Below, piece by piece: positions 3,334 to 60,460 of a stretch of DNA of 64,000 nt; within the stretch, counting starts at the first letter, position 1; every line of letters begins with the position of its first letter. A program made the translations under genes and the position numbers. The stretch is taken from NCBI GenBank assembly GCA_036280655.1, contig DASUQI010000037.1, forward strand, positions 8,735-72,734. Direction: 5' to 3'. The notes below the pieces were generated by a model. That model worked only from the letters and a program-made list of their open reading frames with translations, was not told the DNA's origin and did not search any database. The stretch comes from Actinomycetota bacterium (lineage in GTDB: Bacteria > Actinomycetota > UBA4738 > HRBIN12).

Positions 3334-4401
3334 TCATTCGCCACACATGACGCGGTTGGCCTCGTGCTCGGCCGCGTTCAGGCCGAACTCGTGATGGCCG
3401 TCCTCGCCGCACAGCACGTAGAAGAGGAACTCCGTGTCGGCCGGAGCCAGCGCCGCTTCGAGCGACGCGCGGCCCGGGCTCGCGATCGGCGTCGGCGGCA
3501 GGCCGGGGTTGATCCTTGTGTTGTAGGGGCTGTCGAACTCGAGGTCCGAGAACGACAGCTGCCCGTCGGGCGTCGGGTCGTCGTACAGCAGCGTCGCGTC
3601 GATCCCGAGCGTCATCGGGATCGCGAGCCGGTTGTAGATCACCCCGGCGATCAGCGCGCGCTCCTCGTCGAGCGCGGCCTCCTTCTCGATCATCGAGGCG
3701 ATCACCACGACCTCGTAGGGCGTGACGCCGAGCTCCTCCGCGCTGTCCCACGGCAGGCCCTCGGCCTCGACCCCGAACTGGTCGAGCAGCTCCTGGATCA
3801 CGTCGCCGGGCCGGGTCTCGCCCTCGACGAACTCGTACGTCTCGGGGAACAGGAACCCCTCGGGGCTCTCGGCGTCCTTCGGCAGGTAGGGCGGGGCCGA
3901 CCAGTTCCCGGACCGGACCGCCTTCATGAACCGCTTCGCCGGGATCCCGAGGGACTCCTGCACGCGTTCGGCGATCTGGGTGAGCCGGTAGCCCTCGGGG
4001 ATCGTCAGCCGGACCGTCGAGACGGGTTCGGGCGGCGTCGTGAGCACCTCGAATGCCGCGTCCGGCGTCATGTTCGTCGTGAGCTCGAACGTCCCCGCGC
4101 GGAACTCGCCCTCGTCGCCGCTCCGCCGCAGGAGCCATTTCGACACGAGGCCGCACCGGACGACGCCCTGCTCGTGGAGCCCGTCGACGATCTCCGATCC
4201 GCTCTGTCCGTCACGGACCTCGAACGTGACGGGGTCCTGCGGTCCGGAGGCCTCCTGGCACCAGTCGTAGTACCGCGCCGACGCGATGCCGAGCCCCACG
4301 AGCGACAGCACCACGACGAGCGCGACCCAGCGGCCCCAGCGCGCGCTGCGTTCGACGCGACGACGTGGAGGGTTTTCCTGCCTGGGGGGAGCTTCCTGCA
4401 T
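3334..4401 (-). CDS. mltG: Endolytic murein transglycosylase MltG (YceG family).
   Basis: N-terminal transmembrane helix then a YceG-like domain (…GYRLTQIAERV…IASMIEKEA…VIYNRL…). It holds the conserved position between ruvX and aroE. Confidence 0.9.
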   Translation of the reverse strand: MQEAPPRQENPPRRRVERSARWGRWVALVVVLSLVGLGIASARYYDWCQEASGPQDPVTFEVRDGQSGSEIVDGLHEQGVVRCGLVSKWLLRRSGDEGEFRAGTFELTTNMTPDAAFEVLTTPPEPVSTVRLTIPEGYRLTQIAERVQESLGIPAKRFMKAVRSGNWSAPPYLPKDAESPEGFLFPETYEFVEGETRPGDVIQELLDQFGVEAEGLPWDSAEELGVTPYEVVVIASMIEKEAALDEERALIAGVIYNRLAIPMTLGIDATLLYDDPTPDGQLSFSDLEFDSPYNTRINPGLPPTPIASPGRASLEAALAPADTEFLFYVLCGEDGHHEFGLNAAEHEANRVMCGE

Positions 4402-17307: not shown

Positions 17308-18462
17308 TCACCTCCGCCGACGTTTGGCGGGCGGGCGCCGCTTGCTCTTGGGACGCGGCCTGGACGATGGGGTCCCGGAGCGTCTAGCCGCGGACGACGT
17401 GGCGGCCGTGGACGACGCCGCGGCTGCGAGCTCCTGCTGCACCACCTCCGGCTCCTCCTGCTCGGCGTCCCGGGTGGGGACCGCCCGCAGGCGCCGGGCG
17501 CTCGGGCGCCCCTCGAGCCGTGCCCGGAGCTGCTGGTAGCGCGGCTCGCGCTCCTTGAGGACCACGAGGATCGGCGTGGCCACGAAGATCGACGAGTACG
17601 CGCCGGTCACGACCCCGATCAGCATCGCGAACGCGAAGTCCTTGAGCGTCTGCCCGCCGAAGAGCAGCAGCGACAGGATCGGCAACACGACCACGAGCGA
17701 GGTGTTCACCGAACGCATCAGCACCTGGTTCATCGAGGCGTTCGCGACGGCCTCGTACGTGTCCTTGCCCAGTGCCGCGGTGGACTCGACGTTCTCCTTG
17801 ACCTTGTCGTAGATCACGACGGTGTCGTAGAGCGAGAACCCCAGGATCGTGAGGATCGCGATCACGGTAGCCGGCGAGACCTCCCGGCCGGTGAGCGCGT
17901 ACACCCCCGCCGTGATGATCACGTCGTGGACCATCGCGACCATCGCCCCGAGCGCCATCTTCCACTCGAACCGCAGCGTGATGTAGAGCGTGATCGTGAT
18001 CAGCACGATCAGGAGACCGATCAGCGCCTGCCGCGAGATCTGTTCGCCCCACGTGGGTCCCACGACCTGCGCGCTGATGTCGTCGGCGGGGATCCCCGCC
18101 TGTTCGGCCAGCGCGTCGAACAGCTGCGTCCGCTCCTCGGCCGACAGGTCGGTAAGCGCGGTCGTGCGGATCGAGACCCGGTCGGTGCCGGCGATCTGGA
18201 TCTCGGCGCTCTCCCGCGCGTACGGTTCGGACTCCAGGAGCCCGCGGATGTCCTCGACGCTCGCGCCGGTGGCGAGCCGGTACTCGATCAACGTTCCCCC
18301 CGTGAAGTCGATCGAGTAGTTCAGCCCCCGCCAGAACAACCCCAGCAGGCAGACGGCGATCACGACGCCCGAGACGATCGCCCACCGGCGGCGCTGCTGG
18401 ACGATGTGGAACTCCGGGTGCCGGTATCCGCGGAAGGTGTCGAGTGCGCGACGGAGGCTCAT
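17308..18462 (-). CDS. secF: Protein translocase subunit SecF (with a basic, Ser/Ala-rich C-terminal tail).
   Basis: 384 aa with a six-TM SecF core. 4-nt overlap with secD. Confidence 0.92.
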   Translation of the reverse strand: MSLRRALDTFRGYRHPEFHIVQQRRRWAIVSGVVIAVCLLGLFWRGLNYSIDFTGGTLIEYRLATGASVEDIRGLLESEPYARESAEIQIAGTDRVSIRTTALTDLSAEERTQLFDALAEQAGIPADDISAQVVGPTWGEQISRQALIGLLIVLITITLYITLRFEWKMALGAMVAMVHDVIITAGVYALTGREVSPATVIAILTILGFSLYDTVVIYDKVKENVESTAALGKDTYEAVANASMNQVLMRSVNTSLVVVLPILSLLLFGGQTLKDFAFAMLIGVVTGAYSSIFVATPILVVLKEREPRYQQLRARLEGRPSARRLRAVPTRDAEQEEPEVVQQELAAAASSTAATSSAARRSGTPSSRPRPKSKRRPPAKRRRR

Positions 18463-20465
18463 CCGGAGCCTCCGGCGATCGCGGGGGCCGGCTCGGGAGC
18501 GCTGGGCGAGACCTCGCGATCGGCGGCGAGCCCCGCCTTGACGCCGAACCAGCGCCAGTTCACGGCCCGGTCGCTCCGGACCAGGAGCGAGACGGCCGGC
18601 CGCTTGAAGAAGTACACGACGAACAGGTCGAGCAGGACCGACACCCCGAGAGTCAGCGCGAACCCTCGGACGGAGGAGATCGCCGTGAGGTAGAGCACGA
18701 GCGCCGCGATCGCGGTGACGAAGTCCGCCGCGACGATCGTCTTGAACGAGCGCTGGAAGCCCGGCCCCACCGCCGAGCGAGGCGACTTGCCGGCATGGAC
18801 CTCGTCCTTCAGCCGCTCGAAGAACACGATGTACGAGTCGGCGGTCACACCCAGCGAGATCACGAGGCCGGCGACGCCGGCGAGCGTCAGGTTGTAGCCG
18901 ATCGTCAGACCGGCGAGCGCCACGAGCGCGATCGCGAGGAAGCCCCAGATCGCCATCCCGACCCAGGCCACGATCGCGAGCACCCGGTAGTAGAAGAGGA
19001 GGTACAGGTAGAGCAGGATGAGGCCCGCCACGGCCGCGACGAGCCCCTGCTGGAGCGACTCGTCGCCGAGCGTCGGGCTCACCGTCTGCACCTGCTCGGT
19101 CGTGAGCGCCACCGGGAGGGCCCCTGCGTTCAGCTGGGTCGCGAGGTCCTTCGCGCGCGCTTCGGTGAAGCTGCCGGTGATCACGCCGACCCCGCCGGTG
19201 ATCGCGTTCTGCACCGTTGGTGCCGAGATCACCTCCTGGTCGACGACGATCGCGAGCTGGCGACCCTCCAGCCGCGTCGTCACGTCGGCGAACGTGTCCG
19301 CGCCCTCATCGGTCATGTCGAATTGGATCTGCCAGCCCTGGCCGACGGCCGCCCCTCCCCCCGTGTCGAAGATGGCGGTCGCGCGGTTGATCGCGTCGCC
19401 GGTGATCTCGACCGGGCCGAGCCGGTACTTCGTCTGGCCGTCGCGGTCCAGGAACACGACCTCCTCGCCGGCCAGCCGCTCGAACGAGCACTCGGCCGTC
19501 TCCCGCTCGGCCTCCGTCGAGCACGTGACGCCGGCGGCGTCGTACCCCGGCGTGGCCGGCGCGAGCACCTCGAGCACCTCGCGTTGCTCGAGCCGGGCCG
19601 TCTGGCCGATGACCTGCAGGAGGCGCTCCTGCCCCGTTTCCTGCAGGCGGGCCTCGGCGTCCTCCCGCGAGAGGAAGCAGCCGAGGTTCTCGCCCGCCGA
19701 GCTCAGCACGCAGTACTCCGCGTCCGACCGCTGGACGGTCAGCTCGGAGAGCAGCGCCTCCGCCTCCTCGGCCGTGGGGAAGCACGCGGGGCCGACGTCG
19801 CTCGACAGCGTCGCGTCACCCCTGCCCGTGACGCAGAAGGTCTGCGTCTCCTCCGTCTCGATCGCCGCGAGCTCGGTCTCGGCCTCGGCGCGCGTCGGGA
19901 AGCAGGGGCCCGCCCCGCCAAGCGCGTCGCCGGCGAAGCAGAACTCCCCCTCCTGCCGTTGGACCGAGAGGCCTTGGATCGCGGCGTCGGCCTCCTCCTG
20001 GGTCGGGAAGCAGAGGGGGTCGTCCGCGAACGGATCCCCCGCGAGGCAGACCGAGGTCACCACCGGACCGGAGGTGGCGTCGGCGAGCTGGGAGTCGGCC
20101 GCCTGCTCGCGGTCGAAGCACCCGTAGGTGACGTCCTCCGTATCGACGAGGCAGAACTGGGTCTTGTCGCGCTCCTCGATCGTCCCGCGGGCGAGCCCCG
20201 GGATCTGGACCTCGATCGTGTCGCCCGTGACGAACAGCAGGGGCTCGGCCGTGCCGAACGCGTCGATGCGGCCACGGATGTTCTCGAGCGCCTGGTCCAT
20301 CACGTCCTCGGGCGTCCCCTCGGGCGCCGAGAGGATCACCGAGATGCCGCCCTTCAGGTCGAGCCCCAGCACGGGCCGCGTCCCGGTGACGAGCAGGGCG
20401 ACGCCGGCGACGACGAGCACCAACACGAAGACGATCGACGTCCAGAGCGCGCGTGGCTTCTTCAT
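18459..20465 (-). CDS. secD: Protein translocase subunit SecD (668 aa, with an unusual Cys-rich repeat insertion in the periplasmic head).
   Basis: N-terminal TM helix, periplasmic P1 domain, C-terminal six-TM bundle (…GYNLTLAGVAGLVISLGVTADSYIVFFERLKDE…). Confidence 0.92.
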   Translation of the reverse strand: MKKPRALWTSIVFVLVLVVAGVALLVTGTRPVLGLDLKGGISVILSAPEGTPEDVMDQALENIRGRIDAFGTAEPLLFVTGDTIEVQIPGLARGTIEERDKTQFCLVDTEDVTYGCFDREQAADSQLADATSGPVVTSVCLAGDPFADDPLCFPTQEEADAAIQGLSVQRQEGEFCFAGDALGGAGPCFPTRAEAETELAAIETEETQTFCVTGRGDATLSSDVGPACFPTAEEAEALLSELTVQRSDAEYCVLSSAGENLGCFLSREDAEARLQETGQERLLQVIGQTARLEQREVLEVLAPATPGYDAAGVTCSTEAERETAECSFERLAGEEVVFLDRDGQTKYRLGPVEITGDAINRATAIFDTGGGAAVGQGWQIQFDMTDEGADTFADVTTRLEGRQLAIVVDQEVISAPTVQNAITGGVGVITGSFTEARAKDLATQLNAGALPVALTTEQVQTVSPTLGDESLQQGLVAAVAGLILLYLYLLFYYRVLAIVAWVGMAIWGFLAIALVALAGLTIGYNLTLAGVAGLVISLGVTADSYIVFFERLKDEVHAGKSPRSAVGPGFQRSFKTIVAADFVTAIAALVLYLTAISSVRGFALTLGVSVLLDLFVVYFFKRPAVSLLVRSDRAVNWRWFGVKAGLAADREVSPSAPEPAPAIAGGSG

Positions 20466-20475
20466 CGGCCGACCC

Positions 20476-21198
20476 TCATGCGAGCTCCGCGCCGTTGATG
20501 AGGAGCTTGAACCGGCAGTCGAGCACCTCGGCCGCGAGGCGGCACAGCTGCATGCGGCCGAGGAAGATCTCGAAGTACTCCATGACCTGGCTGATCTGGG
20601 TATCGATCGTGAGCTCGAGGCTCACGGTCTTGGCCGCGGAGTCCACGCGCAGGAACGACTGTTCGGCCGCGAAGTTCACGCGGTCGTGGATGTCGAACTC
20701 GATCTGCCCGGACTTGCGGACCCGGCTCCGGTGCACGTCGGACTTGTCGGCCAGGATCACGGCCGCCGAGACCGGCGACACCGCGTAGCCGTTGTCCTCC
20801 TCGTGGTTGGCGATCGCGGAGACGATCAGCGCGAGGTCGGCGGCCGGGACACGGTCCTTGAGCGACTGGTAGACCAGCACGGCGCCGGTCTGCCCGTGCG
20901 CGTACCGGCTGACCATGTTGCCGACGTCGTGGAGGTAGCCCGCCACGCACGCGAGGTTCGCCGTGTGCTCGTCGAACCCGGCACGCGTCAGGACGTTGTA
21001 CGCGATCCGCGCGGTGAGGTTGGCGTGTCGGAACCCGTGCTCCGTGTAGCCGAGCCCCTCCATCACGCGGTCGGCCGCGGTGATGAACGACGAGAGCTCG
21101 GGGTCGTCCTGGACGAGGTCGAGGGTGATGCCTTCGGGCTCGACCGTCGGTTCGACCGGCTCGATCGGGCGCGCGCCGGGCGCTGCTTCCGTGCTCAC
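20476..21198 (-). CDS. HD-domain phosphohydrolase family protein.
   Basis: Real part of track ORF 20476..21603: ...HGFRHANLTARIAYNV...YLHDVGN... (H..HD signature). The GTG start overlaps the yajC stop (GTGA). Confidence 0.72.
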   Translation of the reverse strand: MSTEAAPGARPIEPVEPTVEPEGITLDLVQDDPELSSFITAADRVMEGLGYTEHGFRHANLTARIAYNVLTRAGFDEHTANLACVAGYLHDVGNMVSRYAHGQTGAVLVYQSLKDRVPAADLALIVSAIANHEEDNGYAVSPVSAAVILADKSDVHRSRVRKSGQIEFDIHDRVNFAAEQSFLRVDSAAKTVSLELTIDTQISQVMEYFEIFLGRMQLCRLAAEVLDCRFKLLINGAELA

Positions 21199-21566
21199 GG
21201 TCCCCGGTCGACCCCTTCTTCGTCCTCGGCATCGCCGCTCTCGTCCTCGTCGTACTGCTCGTCCTCGACGAAGCGCTGCGCGATGCCCTGCCGGACCATC
21301 CTGACGCGGGTGCCGGGGGCGATCTCGACCGTGACGGTTCCCTCGTCGTCGTCGATCTCGACGATCGTGCCGTAGATGCCGCCCGTGGTCATGACCTCGT
21401 CTCCGACCTCCAGCGAGGCGAGCAGTGTCTGCTGGGCGCGCTGGCGGTTGCGCTGCGGCCGGATGAGCAGGAAGTAGAAGCCCACGATCATCAGGACCGG
21501 GAGCGCCAAGCCGATCAGCGAACCGCCGGCCTGCCCTCCCTCTTGGGCAAGGATCCCGAACACCAT
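21195..21566 (-). CDS. yajC: Preprotein translocase subunit YajC.
   Basis: 123 aa, a single TM helix, then ...LEVGDEVMTTGGIYGTIVEIDDDEGTVTVEIAPGTRVRM..., with an acidic tail. Confidence 0.85.
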   Translation of the reverse strand: MVFGILAQEGGQAGGSLIGLALPVLMIVGFYFLLIRPQRNRQRAQQTLLASLEVGDEVMTTGGIYGTIVEIDDDEGTVTVEIAPGTRVRMVRQGIAQRFVEDEQYDEDESGDAEDEEGVDRGP

Positions 21567-25640: not shown

Positions 25641-26723
25641 CTAGGGCGTCCCCCAGTCGGGGCGCTCTGCCTGGACGCCGGGGGCGCCGGTCACCTTCCG
25701 AAGGCCGGTCCCGTCGGGTCGGATCATGAAGATCTGGCCCCGGTCCGCGCGCTGGAGGCTGAACACGATCCACTCCCCGTCGGGGGACCACGATGGTTCC
25801 AACGCGCCCTCGCCTGCTTCGAGCCGGAGCGGGATCTGATGGAGCTGGGAGCCGTCCGGACGCACGAGATACAACCGCCCGTACGGCCTCTGGAAGACGA
25901 TCCAGGCGCCGTCGGGCGACCATGCGTGGTCGTCGAACGCATAGCCCCACGGGGTGATCCGGACCGGGTCGGAGCCGTCGGCTCCCATCACGAACAGTGC
26001 CCCGGATCCCGTCGGGCTCACGCCCTGCTTCGTTCCGAAGAAGCTGAGTCGGGTGCCGTCGGGGGAATACCAGGGAGGTGCGACGGTGCCTCGGAGCAGC
26101 CGGACAAGCCCACCGCCGTCCGAGGCCCGGACCGAGTAGATCCCGTCGAGGTTGGGGTGACCGTCCTGGCCGAAGCCTTCCAGGGCGATCCGGGTCCCGT
26201 CGGGCGAAACGTCTCCGCATCCGAGGTTCAGGTCGGGGTTCTCGGTGGCGTCGAGGGGGCGAAGGTTCGATCCGTCGGGATCTACGACGGCTGGGCGCAG
26301 CGGCGCCGCCGGTCCCGCAGCGTCGTCGTTGGTGATCAGGATGCCGCTCCCGTCCGGGTACCAGACGGCGCAGGTGGTTTCGATGCCCAGATCGCGGACG
26401 GCGGTGCCGTCCGGACGCACCGTGAACCAGGCCGCGAGCCCCTCGGAGCTCGCGTCGGCGTAGAGGATGCGCCCGCCGGGGACGGCGGGGGCCGCCGGCT
26501 CTCCTCGACCGACCGGCGCGAACACCTTCCCCAGGAACACGATCGCCGCGACGGTGACGGCGGCGGCCACGAGCCCGGCCCCGATCCGGCGGTTCCGATG
26601 CTTCCGAGCGCGGATCCGCTCGAAGCGCGCGAAGGAGCCGCGGTCGGGCTGCGACGAGCCGAGGTGATCGACTTCACGGCGGAGATCGGCACCGGCGCGA
26701 CGGCCACGAGCGTCGAGCGTCAT
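25641..26723 (-). CDS. Putative anti-sigma factor: short cytoplasmic N-terminus, one TM helix, then a TolB-like (PD40) beta-propeller.
   Basis: The TM helix is IGAGLVAAAVTVAAIVFLG. Repeated SPDGTRIA / SPDGTRLSF / SPDGAWIVF / SPDGEWIVF blades follow. It sits directly downstream of an ECF sigma gene with a 4-nt overlap. Confidence 0.7.
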   Translation of the reverse strand: MTLDARGRRAGADLRREVDHLGSSQPDRGSFARFERIRARKHRNRRIGAGLVAAAVTVAAIVFLGKVFAPVGRGEPAAPAVPGGRILYADASSEGLAAWFTVRPDGTAVRDLGIETTCAVWYPDGSGILITNDDAAGPAAPLRPAVVDPDGSNLRPLDATENPDLNLGCGDVSPDGTRIALEGFGQDGHPNLDGIYSVRASDGGGLVRLLRGTVAPPWYSPDGTRLSFFGTKQGVSPTGSGALFVMGADGSDPVRITPWGYAFDDHAWSPDGAWIVFQRPYGRLYLVRPDGSQLHQIPLRLEAGEGALEPSWSPDGEWIVFSLQRADRGQIFMIRPDGTGLRKVTGAPGVQAERPDWGTP

Positions 26724-30815: not shown

Positions 30816-31913
30816 TCAGCGCGAGAACTCGACGGCAACCCAGGTCGGGAGCAGCTGGACCCAGGTCCGGCCGGGCGCGAGCGAGATCTCCTCCCCACCC
30901 TTGGCGACGAAGGTGGTCACCTCACCCATGCCCGAGCGCTCCCAGCGCCCCACTACCACCCGGCCGTCCCGGAGGACGTACGCACGTCCGGAACCCGTGA
31001 GCTGCACGTTCGGCGACGGGTTCCCCGCGGCGTCGACGATCTCGCTGTCGGTGACCTCCACGACCTGGATCACGACGTTGCTCGCCGACACCTGTTCGCC
31101 GCCGTCGAGCATGTGGGCCACGTCCCCGTGCGAGCGGAACCACGCGTGCTTGGCCGGCCGCCAGGTCCAGACGACGTCGGAGACCGAGGAGTACGGCAGG
31201 TGGACGGTATCCGCGCGACGGGACCTGCCCTCCCACGTCTCCGAGTACGAGAACAGCGCGTCGGGCGCGCCCCTCTGCTTGCCGCCCGCCTTGCGCAGCG
31301 TCTTCGTGGTCGAGTACAGGTCGTGCGGCGCCGAACGCGTGGGGTCGTGGGTATAGGCACCCGGGGCGACCCCGGTGTTCACGTCCACGAGGTCCTCCCT
31401 GGCGAGTTGTTCCATCACGCGGGGGTTGCCGCCCGAGAAGGCGAACACCGTCGGCCCCAACTGGCGGAGGTAGTCGGGATCGGTCGTGCGCACGCTTCGG
31501 ATCGGGCCGACGCGCTCGGAGTTGCCGCACTGGAAGATCGCGATGAACCGCGTGTAGCCGCCCTCGACCGGCTCCTCGACGACGACGTCCGCGTCGTTCA
31601 GCGATGCCTGCGGTCGCGCCTCGGGCGCGTTCTCCACCTTGACCGCGAGCGCCGGTCGGTCCGGGACGCGACGGCTCGCCATCACCTCGCCGGTGAGCGG
31701 ACACGTTGCCGGGGTCTCGACCTCGTCGGGTTCGGCCAGTCCGACGCTCACGAGCGTCTTCTGGACGAACGCCGGCGCCTGCTTGGGGAACAGCGTGAAG
31801 TACCCGAGCCCCGCCACGAGCGCGAGCGACGCGGTGATCGCGACGACCTTGCCTCGGCGCGACAGTCGCCCGCGACGGTGTCGGGCCGAACGTGGACGAT
31901 CGGTTTCGGGCAT
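30816..31913 (-). CDS. DUF3048-family secreted/membrane-anchored protein.
   Basis: 365 aa. An N-terminal signal/TM segment (VVAITASLALVAGLGYFTLF) is followed by a DUF3048-like core. The call rests on memory of that family. Confidence 0.65.
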   Translation of the reverse strand: MPETDRPRSARHRRGRLSRRGKVVAITASLALVAGLGYFTLFPKQAPAFVQKTLVSVGLAEPDEVETPATCPLTGEVMASRRVPDRPALAVKVENAPEARPQASLNDADVVVEEPVEGGYTRFIAIFQCGNSERVGPIRSVRTTDPDYLRQLGPTVFAFSGGNPRVMEQLAREDLVDVNTGVAPGAYTHDPTRSAPHDLYSTTKTLRKAGGKQRGAPDALFSYSETWEGRSRRADTVHLPYSSVSDVVWTWRPAKHAWFRSHGDVAHMLDGGEQVSASNVVIQVVEVTDSEIVDAAGNPSPNVQLTGSGRAYVLRDGRVVVGRWERSGMGEVTTFVAKGGEEISLAPGRTWVQLLPTWVAVEFSR

Positions 31914-51579: not shown

Positions 51580-52248
51580 GTGTCGAGACTCGCCAATGTT
51601 GCGGTTCCCTGCTCTGTTGCCGTCCTCCTGCTCGCGGCCTGCACGGGCGAGGACGCGACGGGACCCGCCGCGTCCGGTTCCGATCGCTCCTCGGCATCAC
51701 CATCGCCGACGCCGTCCCCCTCGGAAGGGTCCTCGCGGAGGGGCACCAGCCCGATCTTCACCACCGCCAACGAGTTCGTCCTGGCGCCAGAGGACACGCC
51801 GTACCCGTACACCAGGCCGATCTCGCCGCGGACGCGGACCCCCCTCGACGGGACGTACCTGCGGATCCTCACGATCGAGGACGTGGACGGCCTGCTGCCG
51901 TTCCGGTGCCTGCGATGTCCCCCCTTCTTCCTGAACGCCGGCGTGAGCACGATCGCCTTCCACAGGGGCAGCTACTGGCTGAACCACCAGCTCTCGGGGT
52001 TCAAGTCGCTCGGGATGTATACGGTCGAACGGAACCGGGTCACGTTCTTCAACGACCCGTGGTGTCCGCAGGACCGGGGCACCTACCGGTGGGACGTCCG
52101 CGATGGCGCGCTCTTCTTCGAGCCGGTCTCCGGCACGTGCGTCTACGAGGAGGCGCGGGCCAAGGACCTCACGAAGAGCCCCTGGACGAAGATCAAGCCC
52201 TGCGTCTACCTGATCGAGCACCTCTGGCCCGGCCCGATCGCCTGCTGA
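51580..52248 (+). CDS. Cys-rich lipoprotein (hypothetical).
   Basis: Signal peptide with lipobox (VAVLLLAAC), a Pro/Ser-rich linker, and eight Cys in the mature domain. Confidence 0.6.
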   Translation: MSRLANVAVPCSVAVLLLAACTGEDATGPAASGSDRSSASPSPTPSPSEGSSRRGTSPIFTTANEFVLAPEDTPYPYTRPISPRTRTPLDGTYLRILTIEDVDGLLPFRCLRCPPFFLNAGVSTIAFHRGSYWLNHQLSGFKSLGMYTVERNRVTFFNDPWCPQDRGTYRWDVRDGALFFEPVSGTCVYEEARAKDLTKSPWTKIKPCVYLIEHLWPGPIAC

Positions 52249-52393
52249 GGGCCAGCTCGGGCGACACACTGCGGATCCGTTGCCGGCGGGAGGCGTAACA
52301 CGTCGCCAGAGCGAGCGGCGCGGCCCACGGAGACCTCCACCGTTCACCTAGAGTTCATCGGTCGATGACGCGATCCGAACCCGACCCGATGCC

Positions 52394-52894
52394 GTGAAGG
52401 AAGCGGCTCCCATCCTTCGAGGGCTGACCGTCGAGGACGCCGCAGCATGTGACGCGATCGTCGCCGGCCTGCCGTATCACTTCGGGAACGAGCGCGGCGT
52501 CGCCGCGTGCGCGGAGGCCGTTCGTAGCCAGGAAGGGTTCGTCGCGGCGATCGACGAGCGGGTCGTCGGCTTCCTCACGTTCGAGGCTCACTCGGCCGAG
52601 AGCGTTGAGATCACGTGGATGGCCGTGCACGCCGAGCATCGTCGGCGTGGCATCGGACGTTCGATGATCGAGCACGCATCCGCCAACCTGGCCGCGCGGG
52701 GCGTCCGGTTCGTCTCCGTCCTCACGCTTGGACCCTCCGTCCCTGAGGACGTCCCGGACGGGTACGACGGAACCCGGCGCTTCTATCGAGCGGTTGGGTT
52801 CACGCCCTTGCGCGAGCTGGATCTGCGCTCCTGGGACGACGAGTCGGCGCTGCTCCTGGTCCGCGCACTCGGTCCGAGCCACACGATCGAGTGA
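52394..52894 (+). CDS. GNAT-family N-acetyltransferase.
   Basis: …WMAVHAEHRRRGIGRSMIEHA… acetyl-CoA binding motif (R/Q-x-x-G-x-G/A). Confidence 0.8.
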   Translation: MKEAAPILRGLTVEDAAACDAIVAGLPYHFGNERGVAACAEAVRSQEGFVAAIDERVVGFLTFEAHSAESVEITWMAVHAEHRRRGIGRSMIEHASANLAARGVRFVSVLTLGPSVPEDVPDGYDGTRRFYRAVGFTPLRELDLRSWDDESALLLVRALGPSHTIE

Positions 52895-53412
52895 TCGATC
52901 GGTTGCGTAGATCATGGACAGCCGGTCGTGTTCCCTTGGCTCGACGGACAGGAGCCTTAGGTACCGCCGATCGGTCACGCTTCCGAACAGAGGCTTCCCT
53001 CCACCAAGGAGCACGGGGTTCACGATGAGCCGGATGTCATCGATCAACCCGATGTTGATCATGCTAGAGACGAGCAGCGCTCCTCCAACCACGTAGATGT
53101 TCTTGCCGGAGTGCTCTTTCAGCTTCCGGATCTCTCGAGGTCCGGCGCGACGCGTGAGTTACTCCACGCAACATCCATCGGCTTGCGAGAGACGACGATG
53201 TGGGGCCTCCTGGACGCCCACGTCGCATATTCGATCTCCTTGGGCGTCGCCGGCTTCCCGCTCAAAGGCAGCGAGGCTTCGGGGTCTTCCAAGACCGCCG
53301 TCCAGTACTCCTCCCAGCCCGGATGGAAGGACCGGTGGGTTGGCGAAGCATCCTCGCGATGCCGGGCGGATCTGAGCTTGCCCTCTGGCAAGCGAAGCGC
53401 TGACGAGGGCAT
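52895..53412 (-). pseudogene. Dihydrofolate reductase-family (RibD_C-like) gene fragmented by a frameshift.
   Basis: The N-terminal part is in ORF 53119..53412 (…GWEEYWTAV…IVVSRKP…). The C-terminal part is at the start of ORF 52355..53092 (MVGGALLVSSMINIGLIDDIRLIVNPVLLGGGKPLF…YATDR) in another frame. An intact paralogue is at 62302..62907. Confidence 0.5.
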
Positions 53413-53419
53413 CGTCGCG

Positions 53420-53464
53420 TGGTGGGCGCTAGAGGAATTGAACCTCTGACCTCTTCCGCGTCAA
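53420..53464 (-). repeat. 45-bp partial copy of the tRNA-Val(GAC) 3' half (island attR-type direct repeat).
   Basis: tggtgggcgctagaggaattgaacctctgacctcttccgcgtcaa is identical to 60288..60332, the 3' end through the anticodon loop of the intact tRNA. Confidence 0.85.
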
Positions 53465-53667
53465 AGAACGAACAGGCAACGCTGTGACCAGCGCTCTCGC
53501 AGTTCAGTGGCCGTTGGAGGAGCCACAGATGTACCGCTGGGTACAGCCTGGTCCCGTCGGCTCCTGACCAGATATTGACCGACAGTCCCTCGCTCGATCG
53601 GATGGCTCCTGAGCGGGCACATCATTCCCGGGTCACAGGAGACGCGAAGTGTTCCTCCACCGTCCGA

Positions 53668-54147
53668 CTAGCCTCGTAGGGCGGCGAGGCGAGGCGAGAG
53701 CATTCCAAAGAGCGTCGAAACCAGCTGCATACCGTTAAGGATGATCGCCAGCATCGCCAACGTGCGACCGAGACGGTCCGAGGCTCGGACCTCACCCCAG
53801 ATCGCGAAGATCAGCCCGACGGCATATCCCGCCGGCATGAGGATCAGCCCGGCCGCCCCGGAAGGGACCGGGGCAATCCATCCCCAGAACCATCCCAGGA
53901 GGAGCGAGGCCCAAACTATCGGTGGGACTGCCGGACGCCTGTCCGTCTCGGAGGGTTTGAAAGGAGCGGGAACGCGCTCGGAGGTCGGCAGAACGCCGTT
54001 CGGTCCCCACACATCGCCCAACCGCGAGGCCCCGACCGGCGCCCTTGGCGCAGCCCACGCGGGAGCCTCGGCGGGATTCTTGTGGCATGTGGGACAGACG
54101 GTCGCCTCGTCCCGCAGTTCCTCGGCGCAGTGCGGACACACCTTCAC
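53668..54147 (-). CDS. Zinc-ribbon (CPHC…CPTC) N-terminal domain protein with C-terminal TM helices.
   Basis: MKVCPHCAEELRDEATVCPTCHK…, then a Pro-rich linker and two or three hydrophobic helices. Confidence 0.5.
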   Translation of the reverse strand: MKVCPHCAEELRDEATVCPTCHKNPAEAPAWAAPRAPVGASRLGDVWGPNGVLPTSERVPAPFKPSETDRRPAVPPIVWASLLLGWFWGWIAPVPSGAAGLILMPAGYAVGLIFAIWGEVRASDRLGRTLAMLAIILNGMQLVSTLFGMLSPRLAALRG

Positions 54148-54204
54148 GCTGATTGTTTCGGCACGCGGTCGCGGTTGCCTTACGGAAGGGTCCGCCGCCG
54201 GCGG

Positions 54205-54783
54205 TTAGGCCGGCTCGCCGATGAAGCGACGGTAGCGGTCGCGGCACTCAACTGCCGGCTCGCCAGATCGGAACAGGAATGAGACGGGCGAGAGCTCGCC
54301 GCTTCTGTCGTGGCGCTTCAACACCACGGCGTACCGCTCCTCCTGGGAAGTCTCTAACTCGCGGATTGGGTCGATCAGCGCGTCGGCCACCTCGAGACCG
54401 TCTTCGTCGACGATCACGGCATGCGTGATGCTCTCGCGGGGGAGGCGTGCGAATTCGGCCTCGGGATCGTGGTTCCAGTTATCGAGCAGCACGAAGTCCT
54501 GAGCCGTAACCGCGACCAGAATCGAGCGGAACTCTCCGTCGACCCGAGCGAGGCCCGAGAAGAACGTGGCCTCCGATGCAATCGCTCGGAGTTTCTCGGT
54601 CCGACGCATAGCCGCCTCATGGCGGAGGGCCTCATCCTCCGTGAGGGATGCCATCGCCGCGCGGGCGTCATCGAGCTCGAGGTCGTGCAGGCCACCCCAA
54701 ATCACGTACGCGACGCCGGCACGTCTCGCACCTGGGAGAACATTGCCCAAGGCTGACCCGATCGCCTCAATCGCGTCGCTCAT
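54205..54783 (-). CDS. Hypothetical protein (192 aa).
   Basis: Long ORF with island-type codon usage. No recognisable motif. Confidence 0.4.
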   Translation of the reverse strand: MSDAIEAIGSALGNVLPGARRAGVAYVIWGGLHDLELDDARAAMASLTEDEALRHEAAMRRTEKLRAIASEATFFSGLARVDGEFRSILVAVTAQDFVLLDNWNHDPEAEFARLPRESITHAVIVDEDGLEVADALIDPIRELETSQEERYAVVLKRHDRSGELSPVSFLFRSGEPAVECRDRYRRFIGEPA

Positions 54784-55216
54784 GCGTCCCCTTCATGCGG
54801 ACCTGCCTTGCGCCTATCGGAAATCATCGGCTGAGCCCCCTCCCGGCATGAATAGGCGCGTGGTCAACGACGTCCATCGTGCTTCGTTACCAAGCCGGGT
54901 GTCGCAGCTTGCGCCCGATTGAGCTGATCCACGGCTACGGGAGCGGCACCTGAGCGACTGCGAGGAGGACAGGACACGGCGGGCCGTCCTGATCGGGATG
55001 CTACGGGAGATGGATGCCGAGAGTTGGCGGCTACTCCCCGTCTGACCGCACCCAACGAGCAACCGTGTCGGCCAACCCCTTCGTCGGCCACCATGTCACC
55101 ATGAACAGTCGACCGGTTGAGAACCTGCCGATGACCCACCATCCGAAGTGCTTACCGCGTCGGAAGGTGGCGTTGCGGTTACTCATGGGCCTCCTTCGGG
55201 TCGCCTAGGATCGCGA

Positions 55217-55684
55217 TCAGATCGCCGACGACTTCATCGAGCGGTCGGCTTGCATCCAGTTCATGCGTGCAGCCCTTCTGAGGAGCGGCTCGACCTCAGC
55301 GAGGTCCGCCAAGATCATCGCTCGTTCCGACGGAGTTCTCCCGTTGGTGTTCGTCGTTCTGCGTGCAACCCGGTCAAGGATCACGTCAGCAGGGGCGCTG
55401 AGCAGGACGACCGCGTCGAAGCGATCGCAGAACTTCGACTGGTTCCACACGCACCCTTCAACGAAGAGCGAGCGACCATCATCGGAGTCCAGTAGCTCGG
55501 TGATCTTCTCCTCGACCCAGAGCCACTCCCCGAGGTGCAACTCGTCTGAGGGCTCAAGATACGCGCGATACTCGCTCCAGCCCGGATCATCGGTGTCTAC
55601 GACGCGATAACCGCGACGGGCAAGCTCGGCGAGCGCCGACGACTTGCCGGTTCCCGACATACCAGTCACCAAGACCCTCGACAC
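55217..55684 (-). CDS. P-loop NTPase (AAA_33 / small kinase-like).
   Basis: MSRVLVTGMSGTGKSSALAELARRGYRVVDTDD… Walker A at the N-terminus. Confidence 0.68.
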   Translation of the reverse strand: MSRVLVTGMSGTGKSSALAELARRGYRVVDTDDPGWSEYRAYLEPSDELHLGEWLWVEEKITELLDSDDGRSLFVEGCVWNQSKFCDRFDAVVLLSAPADVILDRVARRTTNTNGRTPSERAMILADLAEVEPLLRRAARMNWMQADRSMKSSAI

Positions 55685-55813
55685 AGTGGAACGCTACCGA
55701 GTGTCAAGCGGCGGCGTCGCGGGCGCGGCCTCCGCCCCAAAGTCAGCGGCGGGATGGGCGCGTGAAGTCGGTCACGCTTCGGGAACGTACATCTGACGGG
55801 ACGTCAAGGCGCC

Positions 55814-56260
55814 TCAGGCAGTCAGGACGGGATCAGGTCGCCGCCTATCACCGCTGCCACTTGGGGTTGCGGCGAGTTGATTCGTCGTCGCCACCAACCA
55901 GTTGGTACCAACCACCGACGGGGTGTGACGCGCCGCCTCCCCGAGGTTTGTCGGTCGAGCGACGCCCTTCCATACATGAAGCGTCACCGTGGCTGACCCG
56001 ACCTCACACAGTGCGGCGTCGTGGTCCGCCGAAATCTGCAAGTCGATTGGGTAGACACGCGAGCATCCGATGCCGTGTGCGTCGATATCCCCTGCCAGAG
56101 CCTGGGTCGAGGAGTAGGAGGGAGCCGTCTCATCCCGGTCACCGGGCGCGAGACCCAGGGCGACAATGACCACGAGGCCAACCGCCACACCCACGACGCG
56201 CCTGACCATCCCGCCCAAAGGATGGCACCCAGCTAACTCTTCGTGCTGGCCGCGTGACAC
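55814..56260 (-). CDS. Hypothetical secreted/membrane protein.
   Basis: Internal start MVRRVVGVAVGLVVIVALGLAP is signal-peptide-like. No other motif. Confidence 0.38.
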   Translation of the reverse strand: MSRGQHEELAGCHPLGGMVRRVVGVAVGLVVIVALGLAPGDRDETAPSYSSTQALAGDIDAHGIGCSRVYPIDLQISADHDAALCEVGSATVTLHVWKGVARPTNLGEAARHTPSVVGTNWLVATTNQLAATPSGSGDRRRPDPVLTA

Positions 56261-57150
56261 CGGTCACGCGTCCGTACATGTTGTCGCACCGGGCTGCTAC
56301 GGCCTGAGCTACCCAGGGCCGTGTCGGACCCCAGCGCTACCTGTCGATTCTCGGCGTGACAGGGGGACTAGCGATGCGATGCCCGCGGGGCTCAGAACGC
56401 CGAAACGTCCGACGAGTCAGGCGGATCCGCGTGAGACACCCGCGCTAGGAGTCGTCCTCAATCAGGAGCGCCGGACCTGCAGCATCCTCCATGTTCGGCG
56501 GGATGGCATCCAACTGTGCGTACAGATGAGTTGCTGATCGACTGCGAGGAGGACCGAGTCGTCCGGGCGGTGCTGATCGGGATGCTGCTGGAGGGCGATA
56601 GGCCGCCGTCCCTAGGGCCGCCCGGGACTTCAACGCACCTCGGGGACGGTCAAAGGAGTGAAGCGGTCAAGCGCCGGGACTAGCGACCCTATGGAGCCAC
56701 CCCCAGCCCGAGCTCTTGACACGCTCAACGACCTCGCTCACATGATCTACAACCAACGCCTACCCCGCGGATCGAGGAAGTAGTTCAGGGCCGCGCTCAA
56801 ATTGAGTCCCGGTTGTCCTCCGCGAACGCGGTTCCCGTCTCGCGGAGGCGCCTTGAATCCTCCCTGACCGACACCGCAGCCTCGCGCACGGCGACGGCTT
56901 CTTCGCGAAGGTTGGCCAACCGCGCCCGGAGACGCGCTGCAGACTCGCGGAGACTGGCAACCGATTCCACGGCCGCTCCTCTCGAACAGGTCGAAAGGGC
57001 GACCGGTTAGGCGTGCGCCAACCGTCCAGACGACGTTACGAGCACCGTGTCACACTGCGAGCGACTGACGCAAGGCGTCTCGTGAGAGTAGCCCCCGACG
57101 CGTTCCCATCCTGAGAGGGAGGGGTAGGGCCAAGGGCGTTAGCGCGGATC

Positions 57151-57339
57151 CTAGCCACCTCGGGTCCGGGGGGGCTCGCTGGCGAGGTGACCATACGCCT
57201 CAGCGAGATGGAGGATCACCCTTGCAATCTCCTCGTTCTCCGCCTGGGCCGTGAGCGTTGTGATCTTCTTGGCGATCTCCTGGCGGGCCGTCGCTGCCGC
57301 AGCTGCGGCCCTGATCTGAGCGTCGGTATGCGACGTCAT
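57151..57339 (-). CDS. Hypothetical small helical protein (62 aa).
   Basis: Ala-rich with a helical pattern. Weak evidence. Confidence 0.25.
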   Translation of the reverse strand: MTSHTDAQIRAAAAAATARQEIAKKITTLTAQAENEEIARVILHLAEAYGHLASEPPRTRGG

Positions 57340-57519
57340 TTTGGTATCACCCCCGCGACTAGATGCTACTCGTCCACGTACGCAACCCGCCAGACGCAGG
57401 CTCGTCTGCTACTGGGGCGCGAGACGCGGCAGTGGTTCAGTGACCAGCTCATCCAACCGTGTTCCTGTTAGAGTCCTCCGGTAGCATTTCCGGCTCGGTT
57501 CGCATCGAGCGACCGTCCG

Positions 57520-57756
57520 ATGGCCATCGCTCCTCTGTCGTCGGCCCTTGTTCCCTACGGATCGACGAACAGGAGGGAGCACGATGGCCACCGCTCTCCG
57601 CGAGTTGGATTGGCGTTTTTCTGCCCGATCTGTGGGATTCCCCTCGAACGGTTCGACTTCGACAAGGCTTCCGAGGATTACTCCTGCCCGTTCTGCTGCT
57701 CGCAGCAGCGACCCTCACGGGTTGCGGCTCGCGCCGGGTGGGAGAACCCGGATTAG
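57520..57756 (+). CDS. Small zinc-ribbon protein (CPICG…CPFCC).
   Basis: 78 aa. Two CxxC pairs spaced for a zinc ribbon. Confidence 0.35.
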   Translation: MAIAPLSSALVPYGSTNRREHDGHRSPRVGLAFFCPICGIPLERFDFDKASEDYSCPFCCSQQRPSRVAARAGWENPD

Positions 57757-57951
57757 GTGGCGCATCGGATGAGCACGCACATCTACGGTTCACCACTGAA
57801 GGAAGGACAGGTCGAGACGTATCCTGAGAAACGAACGTGCTCGGAGGAAGGGTGCTCGACCCGACTCTCCATCTACAACCCGTCGAAGCAGTTCTGTTGG
57901 CTCCACGAATGGGTCGGTCCGCGACGTGGCGACTCACCTACTCGGTCATAG
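57757..57951 (+). CDS. Small Cys/His-rich protein (64 aa).
   Basis: …CSEEGCSTRLSIYNPSKQFCWLHEW… a zinc-finger-like C-x4-C…C-x2-H arrangement. Its start abuts the stop of the previous ORF. Confidence 0.35.
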   Translation: MAHRMSTHIYGSPLKEGQVETYPEKRTCSEEGCSTRLSIYNPSKQFCWLHEWVGPRRGDSPTRS

Positions 57952-58651
57952 GGACCCTGTGTCCGCGGAAGGACTCTCGCCGAAGAGCGTTAGAGCACCT
58001 GTAGGCCAGCTCAATTCACTCTGTTCATGTGGCCACTCGGAGTTCGTTCATTAGCGACCGCCGAGGACGTCCCTGCCTCTTCAACAGATGTCCCTGCCAG
58101 CGGCTCTGTCCCATCCACAAGGTGCTTATGCCAGCGGCGCGATCGCACGCAGTGTGATCGAGTGCGAGGACCGAGTCGTCCGGGCGGTGTTGGTCGGGAT
58201 GCTGCGGGGGACCGACCGTTAAGAGCGGATACGCTCTTCTATCTCAGCCAGAGATTCAGGGTGAAGCGGCCCCCACAGTCTCGTTTACTCGGAGTCATCA
58301 AAATGCGTGATCGGTGACCCTTCCACTTACGGCTGGAACGTCATCAGCGACCTTCCGGGCTGGACACCTACAAGGTCCGCGACTGCCGCCGAACTCTCGT
58401 CTCCCGGCCTCCCCTGACGACCCCTCACCCGTCACAACGGGGCCGACCTCCACCGGGCCAACCTCGACGGGACGAACCGCGACAGGTCCAACCTCGACGG
58501 GGCCGACCGCGACAGGGAGCACGTAGCACGACCTTCCCTGCCCCCTTGGGTCATCACCTCGAGCAGCCGCTCCTGATCGACGCCGAGGAGGCCGGACGCT
58601 CCGGGCGGTTCTGGTCGAGATGCTGCGGGATGACGGAGCGGGAGTAGCGAC

Positions 58652-58984
58652 CTAACCCCGAGGGTCGGTTCGAGTGGCTACCTCCGCAGGCGTCCCCTCC
58701 CGTTTGGCCACGAGGACGAATCGGTCGTTCTCCTCAACGACTGCCTCGACGTCCTGAATGACATGCTCGTGGACAACACAGAACTGGCGAGGGTCGTTCC
58801 GGACCCGCTCGTACTCGTCCTTCATCACCGCAATAACCTCGTCGCACCTCTCGTATCCGCACTCGCAGGCGATGTGCATGAACGAGCTGTCGGGAAGGGA
58901 TTCGCGGGTCTGGTCGATCTGTTCGTTGATCCCCCTCGCAACCGCCTCGTTCTTCGCGATCCGTTCCTCCCTGAAGCCCATCAC
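58652..58984 (-). CDS. Small CxCG-motif protein, paralogue 1.
   Basis: 110 aa: …HIACECGYERCDEVIAVMKDEYERVRNDPRQFCVVHEHV…. It is paralogous to 59438..59770. Confidence 0.5.
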   Translation of the reverse strand: MMGFREERIAKNEAVARGINEQIDQTRESLPDSSFMHIACECGYERCDEVIAVMKDEYERVRNDPRQFCVVHEHVIQDVEAVVEENDRFVLVAKREGTPAEVATRTDPRG

Positions 58985-59210
58985 GGTTCTCCCAACTCTT
59001 TCCTGGGTGCCAACCCAACGGATACCCGAAGTCGCGTGCCGGGAACCCCGAGCTGCTCATCGACCGCGAGGAGGGACCGGACGCTGCGGGCGGTGCTGGT
59101 CGGGATGCTGCGGGAAGCGGTCCGCTAGGCTGCCAGGCGGTCGATCTCGAACCACACAGTCTTACGTCCCTCGAGGGAGCGCCCCCAGCGGTCGGCCAAC
59201 TTATCCACGA

Positions 59211-59480
59211 CTACCAAGCCGAGTGGGGTCGATCCTTGTGCCCGTCCAAGTTGAGCCGGTCGAAGGTGAACCAAGGCCCACCGTCTACGACCGTCACGCG
59301 GATCACGGCGTCCCTCGCCTCGAGCTGCAGACCGATCTGGCCGTCTGCCTCAGGGCCGCCATGTCGAGCCGCGTTGTCGACGATCTCGGAGACCATCAGG
59401 ACGACCTCGTCGGAGCGGGCGGCCGGGAGCCGGTCGCTCACGAAATCCGCCGTGATCTTGCGGGCAATCCCCGGAGCGGT
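59211..59480 (-). CDS. RsbW-like anti-sigma factor / Ser-protein kinase (HATPase_c). Start is approximate.
   Basis: …VVLMVSEIVDNAARHG…IRVTVVDGGPWF…. The N-terminal part of the track ORF overlaps the neighbouring gene in another frame. Confidence 0.62.
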   Translation of the reverse strand, partial: TAPGIARKITADFVSDRLPAARSDEVVLMVSEIVDNAARHGGPEADGQIGLQLEARDAVIRVTVVDGGPWFTFDRLNLDGHKDRPHSAW

Positions 59481-59770
59481 CTGCTCATAAGGCAGCCGGT
59501 GCTCCACATCATGACGCTGATCACCGAGTCGATCTCCGGGTTCTCGTGATCGAGTGCGAGCGCGAAGCGGGTGGCCTCGCTCCGGATACCCTCGTACTCC
59601 GCTCGGGTGAGTCGGATCGGATCGGAGCATCGCACGTCTCCGCACTCACAGAGGTACGTGTCCATCGCACGCTCGAGCCCCTCACGACCGTCGGTGTCGT
59701 CCTCCGTCCACTCGTTCATCTCGCGGAAGATCGTCTGGTTGATGGCCTCCTGAGCTCGATAGTCAGCCAT
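59438..59770 (-). CDS. Small CxCG-motif protein, paralogue 2.
   Basis: Internal start MADYRAQEAINQTIFREMNEW…YLCECGDVRCSDPIRLTRAEYEGIRSEATRFALALDHE… shares the CECG-x2-RC…EYE…HE pattern with 58652..58984. Confidence 0.5.
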   Translation of the reverse strand: MADYRAQEAINQTIFREMNEWTEDDTDGREGLERAMDTYLCECGDVRCSDPIRLTRAEYEGIRSEATRFALALDHENPEIDSVISVMMWSTGCLMSRPLRGLPARSRRIS

Positions 59771-60113
59771 CGGGATGCCCGTCGAGGTCGGCCGATGAGC
59801 GCGACGAACCAGGAGCACGCTGCGTGAAGCGGGCGAGGAGCCGCACCCCTTCTCGCTCATCGACGACGTACTCGGTCGCGGTCACCTGGAGGATCTTCCT
59901 GAGCTGGTCGCTCGCGCCAATCAGGGCCAGGCGATGTCCGTTGTCCTTCGCACGGCGCTGTGCGTTCAAGAACGTGCGCAGCCCCGTGGAATCGACGAAG
60001 GTCAGGTCTCGAAGATCGAGGAGCACCCCCCCGACGTCGTCCTGCTCGACCCGCGTCAGGTGCTGTTCGAGCGTCGGAGCGGTTGCTAGGTCGAGTTCGC
60101 CCCAAAGGGCCAA
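59763..60113 (-). CDS. STAS-domain anti-sigma-factor antagonist (RsbV-like).
   Basis: …GGVLLDLRDLTFVDSTGLRTFLNAQRRA…HRLALIGASDQLRKIL…. Confidence 0.72.
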   Translation of the reverse strand: MALWGELDLATAPTLEQHLTRVEQDDVGGVLLDLRDLTFVDSTGLRTFLNAQRRAKDNGHRLALIGASDQLRKILQVTATEYVVDEREGVRLLARFTQRAPGSSRSSADLDGHPDG

Positions 60114-60287
60114 TCGGACGACCTCGTTCCTGCGGTCGTCATAGGATGTCGAACAAGGAGCGGGACGGGACCCCCATGTTGGCTCCCCTCTGCGTGTCGG
60201 CGCTCTCTCGCCGATCGGGTGGTGAACCAGAAGTTGGGGTTCCCACGCGCCAGACCGTGGGTCCGGGTCCGGCGCGAACAGTCTACC

Positions 60288-60362
60288 TGGTGGGCGCTAG
60301 AGGAATTGAACCTCTGACCTCTTCCGCGTCAAGGAAGCGCTCTACCCCTGAGCTAAGCGCCC
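60288..60362 (-). tRNA. tRNA-Val (anticodon GAC), with CCA encoded. This is the island integration target.
   Basis: Reverse complement: GGGCGCTTAGCTCAGGGGTAGAGCGCTTCCTTGACGCGGAAGAGGTCAGAGGTTCAATTCCTCTAGCGCCCACCA. The anticodon stem is CTTCC/GGAAG with loop UU-GAC-GC. Confidence 0.88.
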
Positions 60363-60389
60363 GAGATCCGGCATCGTACCGCCGGGCCG

Positions 60390-60460
60390 AGGCGGGGACC
60401 GGAATTGAACCGGTGTAGAGGGTTTTGCAGACCCTTGCCTAACCACTCGGCCACCCCGCC
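60390..60460 (-). tRNA. tRNA-Cys (anticodon GCA).
   Basis: Reverse complement: GGCGGGGTGGCCGAGTGGTTAAGGCAAGGGTCTGCAAAACCCTCTACACCGGTTCAATTCCGGTCCCCGCCT. It has a 7-bp acceptor stem, U8, an anticodon stem AGGGT/ACCCT with loop CU-GCA-AA, and U73 discriminator. Confidence 0.85.

Follow-up and report, generated by a model that had tools for sequence, protein, structure and literature searches.

The 64,000-nucleotide stretch of DNA analyzed here (referred to below as the window) comes from an Actinomycetota bacterium (assembly GCA_036280655.1, contig DASUQI010000037.1, positions 8,735 to 72,734) and encodes a SecD protein of 668 residues with an unusual architecture. In the bacterial Sec machinery, SecDF acts as the proton-driven puller, and this action relies on the P1 head moving over the P1 base. 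In the SecD of the window, the P1 base is split by a lineage-specific insertion that is built from five tandem units, each with a pair of cysteines. The insertion is real, ancient, clade-wide and, as far as we have searched, undescribed, and the protein is a SecD with a novel inserted repeat domain. What the domain does is judged here from sequences and predicted structures, and we give about an even chance to the view that it is a rigid, disulfide-stapled accessory domain with a static structural role on the P1 base of a functional SecD.

Judged by its sequence, the open reading frame (ORF) is unambiguously that of a SecD and looks functional. The protein scores 313.6 bits against TIGR01129 (cutoff 244.4) in two stretches that flank the insert, and Pfam recognizes SecD_1st (PF21760), SecDF_P1_head (PF22599, E 1e-28, residues 340–452) and SecD_SecF_C (PF02355, E 1.8e-10, residues 454–626). 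It aligns with the Thermus thermophilus SecDF structure 3AQP at an E value of 1.4e-58, and a full-length AlphaFold2 model matches SecDF crystal structures in Foldseek at E values of about 1e-20. As in the canonical SecD and SecDF proteins (T. thermophilus 3AQP/5YHF; Deinococcus radiodurans 5XAN), the first transmembrane helix (TM1), the P1 base, the P1 head and TM2–6 are all present, secF is adjacent and yajC lies upstream. The TM4 aspartate is also kept: Asp543 stands opposite Asp340 of T. thermophilus in the 3AQP alignment (segment 'GAAVDGN' / 'GVTADSY'), a residue that is essential and belongs to the proton pathway (PMC5974789).

The insertion point falls within the P1 base. SecD_1st is matched over profile positions 1–37 of 60 only, with the match ending at residue 91, and TIGR01129 picks up again at residue 279. 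The SecD_1st domain is thus non-contiguous, being interrupted by the insert of about 180 residues and continuing at residue 275–279; an interruption of this kind marks an insertion variant and does not exclude the protein from the SecD family. In the 3AQP alignment, residues 12–94 correspond to Thermus residues 14–98 ('...IVVELPGLSQA') and residues 275–628 to Thermus residues 96–425 ('SQADQDRALKLIGQRAVLEFRIV...'). The insertion point is the P1-base loop that joins the second strand (IEVQIPG) to the second helix (QERLLQVIG), at about residues 96–98 of T. thermophilus SecDF, so that the five Cys-pair units stand where the T. thermophilus protein has the loop 'LSQAD'. The NCBIfam SecD/SecDF models PRK12911 (1403 positions), PRK13024.1-5 (993) and the RND_1 variant (1237) all fail to cover residues 95–274. 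Models of the SecD/SecDF family range from 397 to 1403 profile positions, and from this large spread in length we infer that lineage-specific additions are common in the family. The original prediction, made from the sequence of the window alone, had described an insertion that is internally duplicated and belongs to the extracytoplasmic P1 domain of a genuine SecD, and hhalign comparisons of its units, TIGR01129 and the 3AQP alignment all bear this out. It had also called the insertion unusual, and we found no description of it in the literature searched. The location it gave needs to be corrected. The repeats had been assigned to the P1 head, at 19475–20150, but the array splits SecD_1st, the P1-head match starts at residue 340, and the insert actually occupies 19644–20183, beginning about 30 nucleotides beyond the earlier range.

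All 12 cysteines of the protein lie within residues 105–326, where they form six C-x10-16-C pairs. Given the 0.65% Cys content of the other 49 proteins predicted in the window, the binomial probability of 12 cysteines in 222 residues is 3.7e-8. Six candidate units were cut from an alignment of 69 orthologues, and the unit profiles were compared pairwise using hhalign. Five of them, designated U1 to U5, are mutually homologous (probability 88–98.5%, pairwise E 3e-6 to 3e-15) and make up an array of tandem units of about 36 residues each over residues 101–277. The repeats therefore hold up under alignment, and the count of five given earlier was right, although the membership was not: the true set consists of U1 and the first four of the units previously listed, which are U2–U5. 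The segment that had been taken as the fifth unit, around C315/C326 (VTCSTEAERETAECSFERL), was rejected as a repeat, with an hhalign probability of at most 1.1% against U1–U5 and 0.4% against the phage units described below. This separate Cys pair, just upstream of the P1-head match, is a further difference from canonical SecD/SecDF, and both of its cysteines are kept in 69/69 aligned orthologues. Streptomyces SecD presumably has a Cys pair at a comparable position, and the pair may be an older actinobacterial feature. The five true units share the pattern [FY]-C-[LVI]-x-G ... C-[FY]-x-[TS]-x-x-x-A-x-x-A-[LI]-x-x-[IL]-x-V, in which the cysteines are essentially invariant, the Ala at +7 is conserved in 87–100%, and positions +11 and +16 are hydrophobic. 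A search of 19400–20250 for tandem repeats at the DNA level returned only a trivial 9-nucleotide repeat; because no DNA-level repeat is left, the duplication must be old rather than recent.

The insert is predicted to adopt a well-defined fold. In the full-length AlphaFold2 model it is the best-predicted extracytoplasmic part, with a predicted local distance difference test score (pLDDT) of 80–90, and when it was modeled alone with 34 orthologous sequences, the mean pLDDT was 90.6 and the predicted template modeling score (pTM) 0.67. According to DSSP assignments on the model, each unit consists of a long strand with the first Cys near its end, a turn, a short strand with the second Cys, and a helix of nine to ten residues that begins at the [FY]-x-[TS]-x-x-E-A motif. 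The strand following each helix continues directly into the first strand of the next unit, and the helix of U5 (residues 267–286) is continuous with the canonical base helix QERLLQVIG. A Foldseek search of the PDB with the insert model gave no match at E values up to 1e-3, with TM-scores of at most 0.2, and a search of BFVD gave short local matches only, to small phage proteins (root-mean-square deviation 0.7–2.2 Å). Likewise, a PDB sequence search using the unit profile and the phage module turned up nothing meaningful and no solved structure. Inter-unit contacts were also sought by mean-field direct coupling analysis, but with an effective number of sequences (Meff) of 72 the output was noisy and was not used.

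To establish how far this SecD variant extends, GTDB was scanned with one genome per species. A relative of the protein is encoded in at least 129 species-level genomes, and the loci of the best 80 of these 129 were fetched. All 80 are uncultured metagenome-assembled genomes, nearly all of them unclassified Actinomycetota or Actinomycetes and many from soil surveys; three carriers bearing other taxon names are on very short contigs and may be binning errors. When the full protein was used as the query of a word-index search, over 120 metagenome clusters were recovered at 67% identity or higher, with lengths of 660–685 residues, and the identical protein has been deposited independently with the plain annotation SecD (P0017, a cluster of 18 member sequences). 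The copy number is five in every orthologue, and the array has been lost in none of the 80 fetched loci (0/80). All 12 cysteines are retained in 185 of 192 distinct full-length orthologues, and in the fetched loci the six Cys pairs keep the same positions even where identity over the N-terminal half falls to about 35%. Throughout 888 kb of related loci, the module was found nowhere but in SecD reading frames. One of these loci (L063, CAVSJR010000003.1) has a SecD reading frame of 1028 codons, about the combined length of SecD and SecF, which points to either fusion into a SecDF or loss of a stop codon.

Within this conserved framework, the units evolve at very different rates. Mean pairwise identity is 0.34–0.39 for U1–U4, 0.56 for U5, 0.60 for the P1 head and 0.78 for TM2–6, and the hairpin motif VSSAG-x-x-LG of U5 is conserved at 94–99%. 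Insert length ranges from 175 to 252 residues among orthologues, and those that branch deeply have low-complexity stretches rich in Pro, Ser, Thr and Ala at the U2–U3 junction and within the hairpin of U4. In six of the loci (L043, L061, L067, L072, L075 and L078), the U4 Cys pair encloses a Pro/Ser/Thr/Ala-rich loop of 55–60 residues. If the pair is oxidized, this would be a disulfide-closed disordered loop, and one may speculate about a glycosylation-type linker. The net charge of the insert varies from 5 net positive to 32 net negative; conserved acidity was therefore dismissed as a functional clue.

That the two cysteines of each unit form a disulfide, as had been presumed at the outset, is supported indirectly by their near-invariance, by the way they are lost, by the probable location of the insert and by the even Cys counts of other exported proteins. 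Both partners of one unit were removed in five of six Cys-loss events: pair 1 in L028 (replaced by D/H) and in L039 (R/T), pair 3 in P0115 (A/V), and pair 2 (E/T) as well as pair 4 in the 684-residue P0144. Only P0032 has lost a single Cys. Two other deviating rows were set aside, one being frameshifted (L054) and the other an alignment artefact that actually has 12 cysteines (L068). Because the losses remove within-unit partners together, they argue for disulfides within the hairpins. Homology to SecDF indicates that the insert is extracytoplasmic. Moreover, all five Cys-containing proteins of the window that are membrane-anchored or lipoprotein-like have even numbers of extracytoplasmic cysteines (4, 2, 2, 6 and 12), although as the signature of a disulfide-making organism this is anecdotal. 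Those besides SecD are encoded at 3334–4401, 25641–26723, 30816–31913 and 51580–52248, with counts of 4, 2, 2 and 6, respectively, the last for the mature lipoprotein. In mycobacteria, disulfide formation by DsbA and VKOR is established (PMC12421883).

Relatives of the repeat unit outside SecD were found in phages. An HMMER search of 1.84 billion representative proteins with a unit profile (A3; 35 positions, 50 units) gave just 82 matches at E values up to 1e-3. Most of these are SecDs of the insert clade or fragments of them, many frameshifted; 19 are phage proteins, matched at E 1.7e-13 to 1e-3, and one, a 900-residue HYR-like repeat protein (P0168), was discarded as a false positive. The phage proteins comprise HK97-type prohead proteases (Peptidase_S78), Mu gpI-like proteases, scaffold- or capsid-fused proteins (PHROGs 976, 80, 328, 18402, 859 and 133) and tiny ORFs. 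They carry one to three copies of the motif G-x-[FWY]-C-[VIL]-x(8-11)-G-C-[FHY]-x-[TS]-x-x-E-A-x-A-x-[LM], that is, the same Cys-pair hairpin and helix as the SecD units. They differ in being presumably cytoplasmic, and their copies sit at the termini or linkers of capsid-assembly proteins. In the reverse direction, a hidden Markov model (HMM) of 37 phage units had SecD as its sole match among the 898 six-frame ORFs of the window (E 1.5e-31), with five domains falling on U1–U5, and hhalign paired the phage units with U1–U5 at a probability of 95–98%. The reciprocal HMM test is partly circular because the phage units had been picked with the SecD profile. By sequence comparison, the SecD repeat is of a unit type shared with head-maturation protease, scaffold and capsid proteins of tailed phages, and among the proteins searched it was found in no other group.

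Known families describe the phage module better than the SecD insert. The module corresponds to phrog_3684, which is annotated 'unknown function', and three Cys-bearing phage proteins match this family (P0182 at 4.4e-14, P0205 at 3.5e-12 and P0191 at 1.5e-5). The SecD insert itself has no match to phrog_3684 at E values up to 1, so that the link between them is transitive only, running through the phage proteins that the unit profile had found. Stand-alone and protease-borne phage modules also score 15–22.2 bits against DUF2188 (PF09954), a family of small bacterial and phage proteins for which the literature searched gave no characterization. Only one of these scores reaches the gathering cutoff of 22, and in that case, at 22.2 bits, no single stretch passes. 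DUF2188 resembles the SecD units in having a hairpin followed by a 'T-x-x-E-A' helix start. It differs in that the module-related stand-alone phage ORFs, RCIP0023_00443 and MAM_026, lack the Cys pair; their products are 53–62 residues long and read 'KWEV...GTH'. The insert has no match to DUF2188 at E values up to 10, and since it matches neither family, membership in phrog_3684 or DUF2188 is not claimed for it. Indeed, no significant family was assigned to the insert by Pfam, NCBIfam or PHROG. A SPOR match (14.9 bits, E 0.033) involved the helix only and was dismissed. The module is widespread among phages: tblastn with the N-terminal module of the phage protease P0205 found similar sequences in 255 cultured-phage records, including jumbo Klebsiella phages, Ackermannviridae and Vibrio phage CP-T1; in the last of these, an ORF annotated 'portal protein' contains the match. 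The Glu/Thr pair that replaces the cysteines of U2 in P0144 also occupies the corresponding positions of the stand-alone phage ORFs without Cys, which suggests that Cys/Cys and Glu/Thr may be two interchangeable closures of the hairpin.

In the reading we favor, the Cys pair of each hairpin would be oxidized after export of P1 and become a disulfide staple, giving an array that is rigid, folded and resistant to denaturation and protease. The array would exit the base through U1 and re-enter it by the U5 helix, which runs on into the base helix, and could form a buttress or wall on the P1 base, next to the emerging polypeptide and the P1 head as it swings. Entry by a strand, return by a fused helix and the fixed copy number together suggest a defined domain and not an open-ended stalk. 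Since U1–U4 conserve only their core while their surfaces drift, the array is most likely a rigid accessory surface, and an enzyme or a specific ligand-binding site is unlikely. Several observations weigh against this reading. The surface-like U5 motif is strongly conserved and might reflect a specific contact or function, and the flexible linkers of deep-branching orthologues argue against a single rigid body. Units persist in P0144, L028, L039 and P0115 after loss of their cysteines. Many phage homologues retain the Cys pair although proteins of phage head assembly presumably stay in the cytoplasm, implying that the module can fold without a disulfide. Finally, the 49 predicted proteins of the 64-kb window include no evident DsbA- or VKOR-like protein and no CxxC thioredoxin-like candidate.

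Other explanations for the array were considered. The strongest of them, possible though clearly behind the buttress in our estimation, is that the mini-domains form a multivalent binding module for an envelope component, a partner foldase or unfolded polypeptide arriving from SecY, and thus serve as a holdase or tether. The near-fixed U5 motif would fit such a role, the tandem arrays of deep branches, with their flexible linkers, look like beads on a string, and the same module recurs in phages, in proteins that work on capsid proteins during assembly. Against it stand the poorly conserved surfaces of U1–U4, the wide swings in net charge and the failure to match any known binding-domain family beyond the dismissed SPOR hit; the phage comparison is of limited help, too, as the module's own role in phages is unassigned. 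The array could instead be a near-neutral passenger, a phage-derived mini-domain that entered a permissive SecD loop, was amplified and has been kept because its removal destabilizes the fold, with no part in translocation. Fast evolution of U1–U4, the widely varying linker lengths and the apparent tolerance of the SecD/SecDF family for large additions are what one would expect of a passenger, but we find this doubtful: five copies are fixed, the cysteines and core are invariant even in the most divergent fetched loci, and none of these loci has shed the array. Fixed copy number and an invariant core imply that the fold has long been under purifying selection.

A redox or metal sensor, in which the Cys pairs gate SecDF by the extracellular redox state or metal availability, seems very improbable. 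Ten cysteines in a compact exposed domain invite the idea, and SecDF loses its activity when engineered disulfides limit the motion of the P1 region (PMC5974789). However, each pair is confined to one hairpin and hence would not link head and base, CxxC and His-rich motifs are absent, the residues that take the place of lost pairs (E/T, A/V, D/H, R/T) are not ligand-like, and the units persist without Cys. That the insert is an artefact of assembly, frameshifting or low complexity merits practically no credence. Many database fragments of the gene are indeed frameshifted, but this explanation is refuted by the set of 192 distinct full-length orthologues, and the independent deposit of an identical protein, a G+C content at third codon positions (GC3) of 0.96 across the secD ORF and the confident AlphaFold2 fold speak against it as well.

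The features discussed are collected in the table below. The genes around secD are arranged in the order ruvC-ruvA-ruvB-yajC-(HD-domain gene)-secD-secF-apt, so that the yajC-secD-secF operon arrangement is present with an HD-domain gene interposed between yajC and secD. This gene stops 10 bp ahead of the secD start, and the position is likewise occupied in 78/80 related loci; it is a second conserved peculiarity of the secD surroundings in insert-bearing genomes. Elsewhere in the window, a stretch at about 52000–60300 has a GC content of 0.64, compared with about 0.70 for the rest, contains few confident ORFs and one AAA_18 match, and ends at genes for tRNA-Val(gac) and tRNA-Cys (60288–60460). 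It may be a horizontally acquired or degraded island beside tRNA genes.

Table. Positions of secD, the parts of its product, neighboring genes and two stand-alone phage ORFs (window positions unless a phage locus is named).
Feature	Position	Strand	Basis
secD (668 aa)	18459..20465	minus	TIGR01129, Pfam, 3AQP alignment, Foldseek of AlphaFold2 model
Lineage-specific insertion, residues 95–274 (~180 aa), splits P1 base (SecD_1st)	19644..20183	minus	SecD_1st, 3AQP alignment
U1, residues 101–135, KTQFCLVDTEDVTYGCFDREQAAD..., C105/C116	20061..20165	minus	hhalign vs U2–U5, probability 97–98.5%, E 5e-11 to 3e-15; domain 1 of phage-unit HMM match
U2, residues 136–171, C140/C152	19953..20060	minus	hhalign; phage-unit HMM
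U3, residues 172–206, C176/C188	19848..19952	minus	hhalign; phage-unit HMM
U4, residues 207–247, C211/C228	19725..19847	minus	hhalign; phage-unit HMM
U5, residues 248–277, C252/C263, most conserved unit	19635..19724	minus	hhalign vs phage module, probability 98.4%
Canonical P1-base helix and strand after the insert, residues 278–300, GQERLLQVIGQTARLEQREV	19566..19634	minus	aligns with T. thermophilus SecDF 'DQDRALKLIGQRAVLEFRIV'; near-invariant in orthologues
Separate Cys pair C315/C326 (residues 311–335), non-repeat	19461..19535	minus	just upstream of Pfam P1-head match
P1 head subdomain, residues 340–452	19110..19448	minus	PF22599, E 1e-28
TM helices 2–6, residues 468–630, no Cys	18576..19064	minus	PF02355 and PF03176 matches; helices in AlphaFold2 model
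secF, overlaps secD stop codon	17308..18462	minus	PF02355, E 4e-63
HD-domain gene (HD/HDIG) between yajC and secD	20476..21150	minus	Pfam HD, E 1.1e-5; TIGR00277 below cutoff
yajC	21195..21566	minus	PF02699, E 1.3e-28
Stand-alone ORF RCIP0023_00443, Klebsiella phage	L081 589–750	+	no Cys, annotated hypothetical
Stand-alone ORF MAM_026, Serratia phage phiMAM1	L082 556–744	+	no Cys, annotated hypothetical

A bolder proposal, which we consider improbable, is that SecD has domesticated a phage capsid-assembly mini-domain and multiplied it to five copies, which then act as a holdase or guide for unfolded chains leaving SecY. If this were true, a translocon subunit would have a built-in chaperone on the trans side, an orphan module that is widespread in phages would gain a function, and the arrangement would mirror a hitherto unrecognized part played by the module, as scaffold or chaperone, in the head-maturation proteases of phages. 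Whatever its role, the SecD array ties this orphan module (phrog_3684, DUF2188-like) to a cellular protein for the first time. The unit itself, compact at about 36 residues, confidently predicted and apparently able to fold with or without a staple, is of interest for protein engineering. For the Sec machinery, a natural variant with a decorated P1 base in more than 100 soil species is a ready test of what decoration the base will tolerate, and it also bears on whether accessory surfaces on the trans side aid secretion in monoderm soil bacteria.

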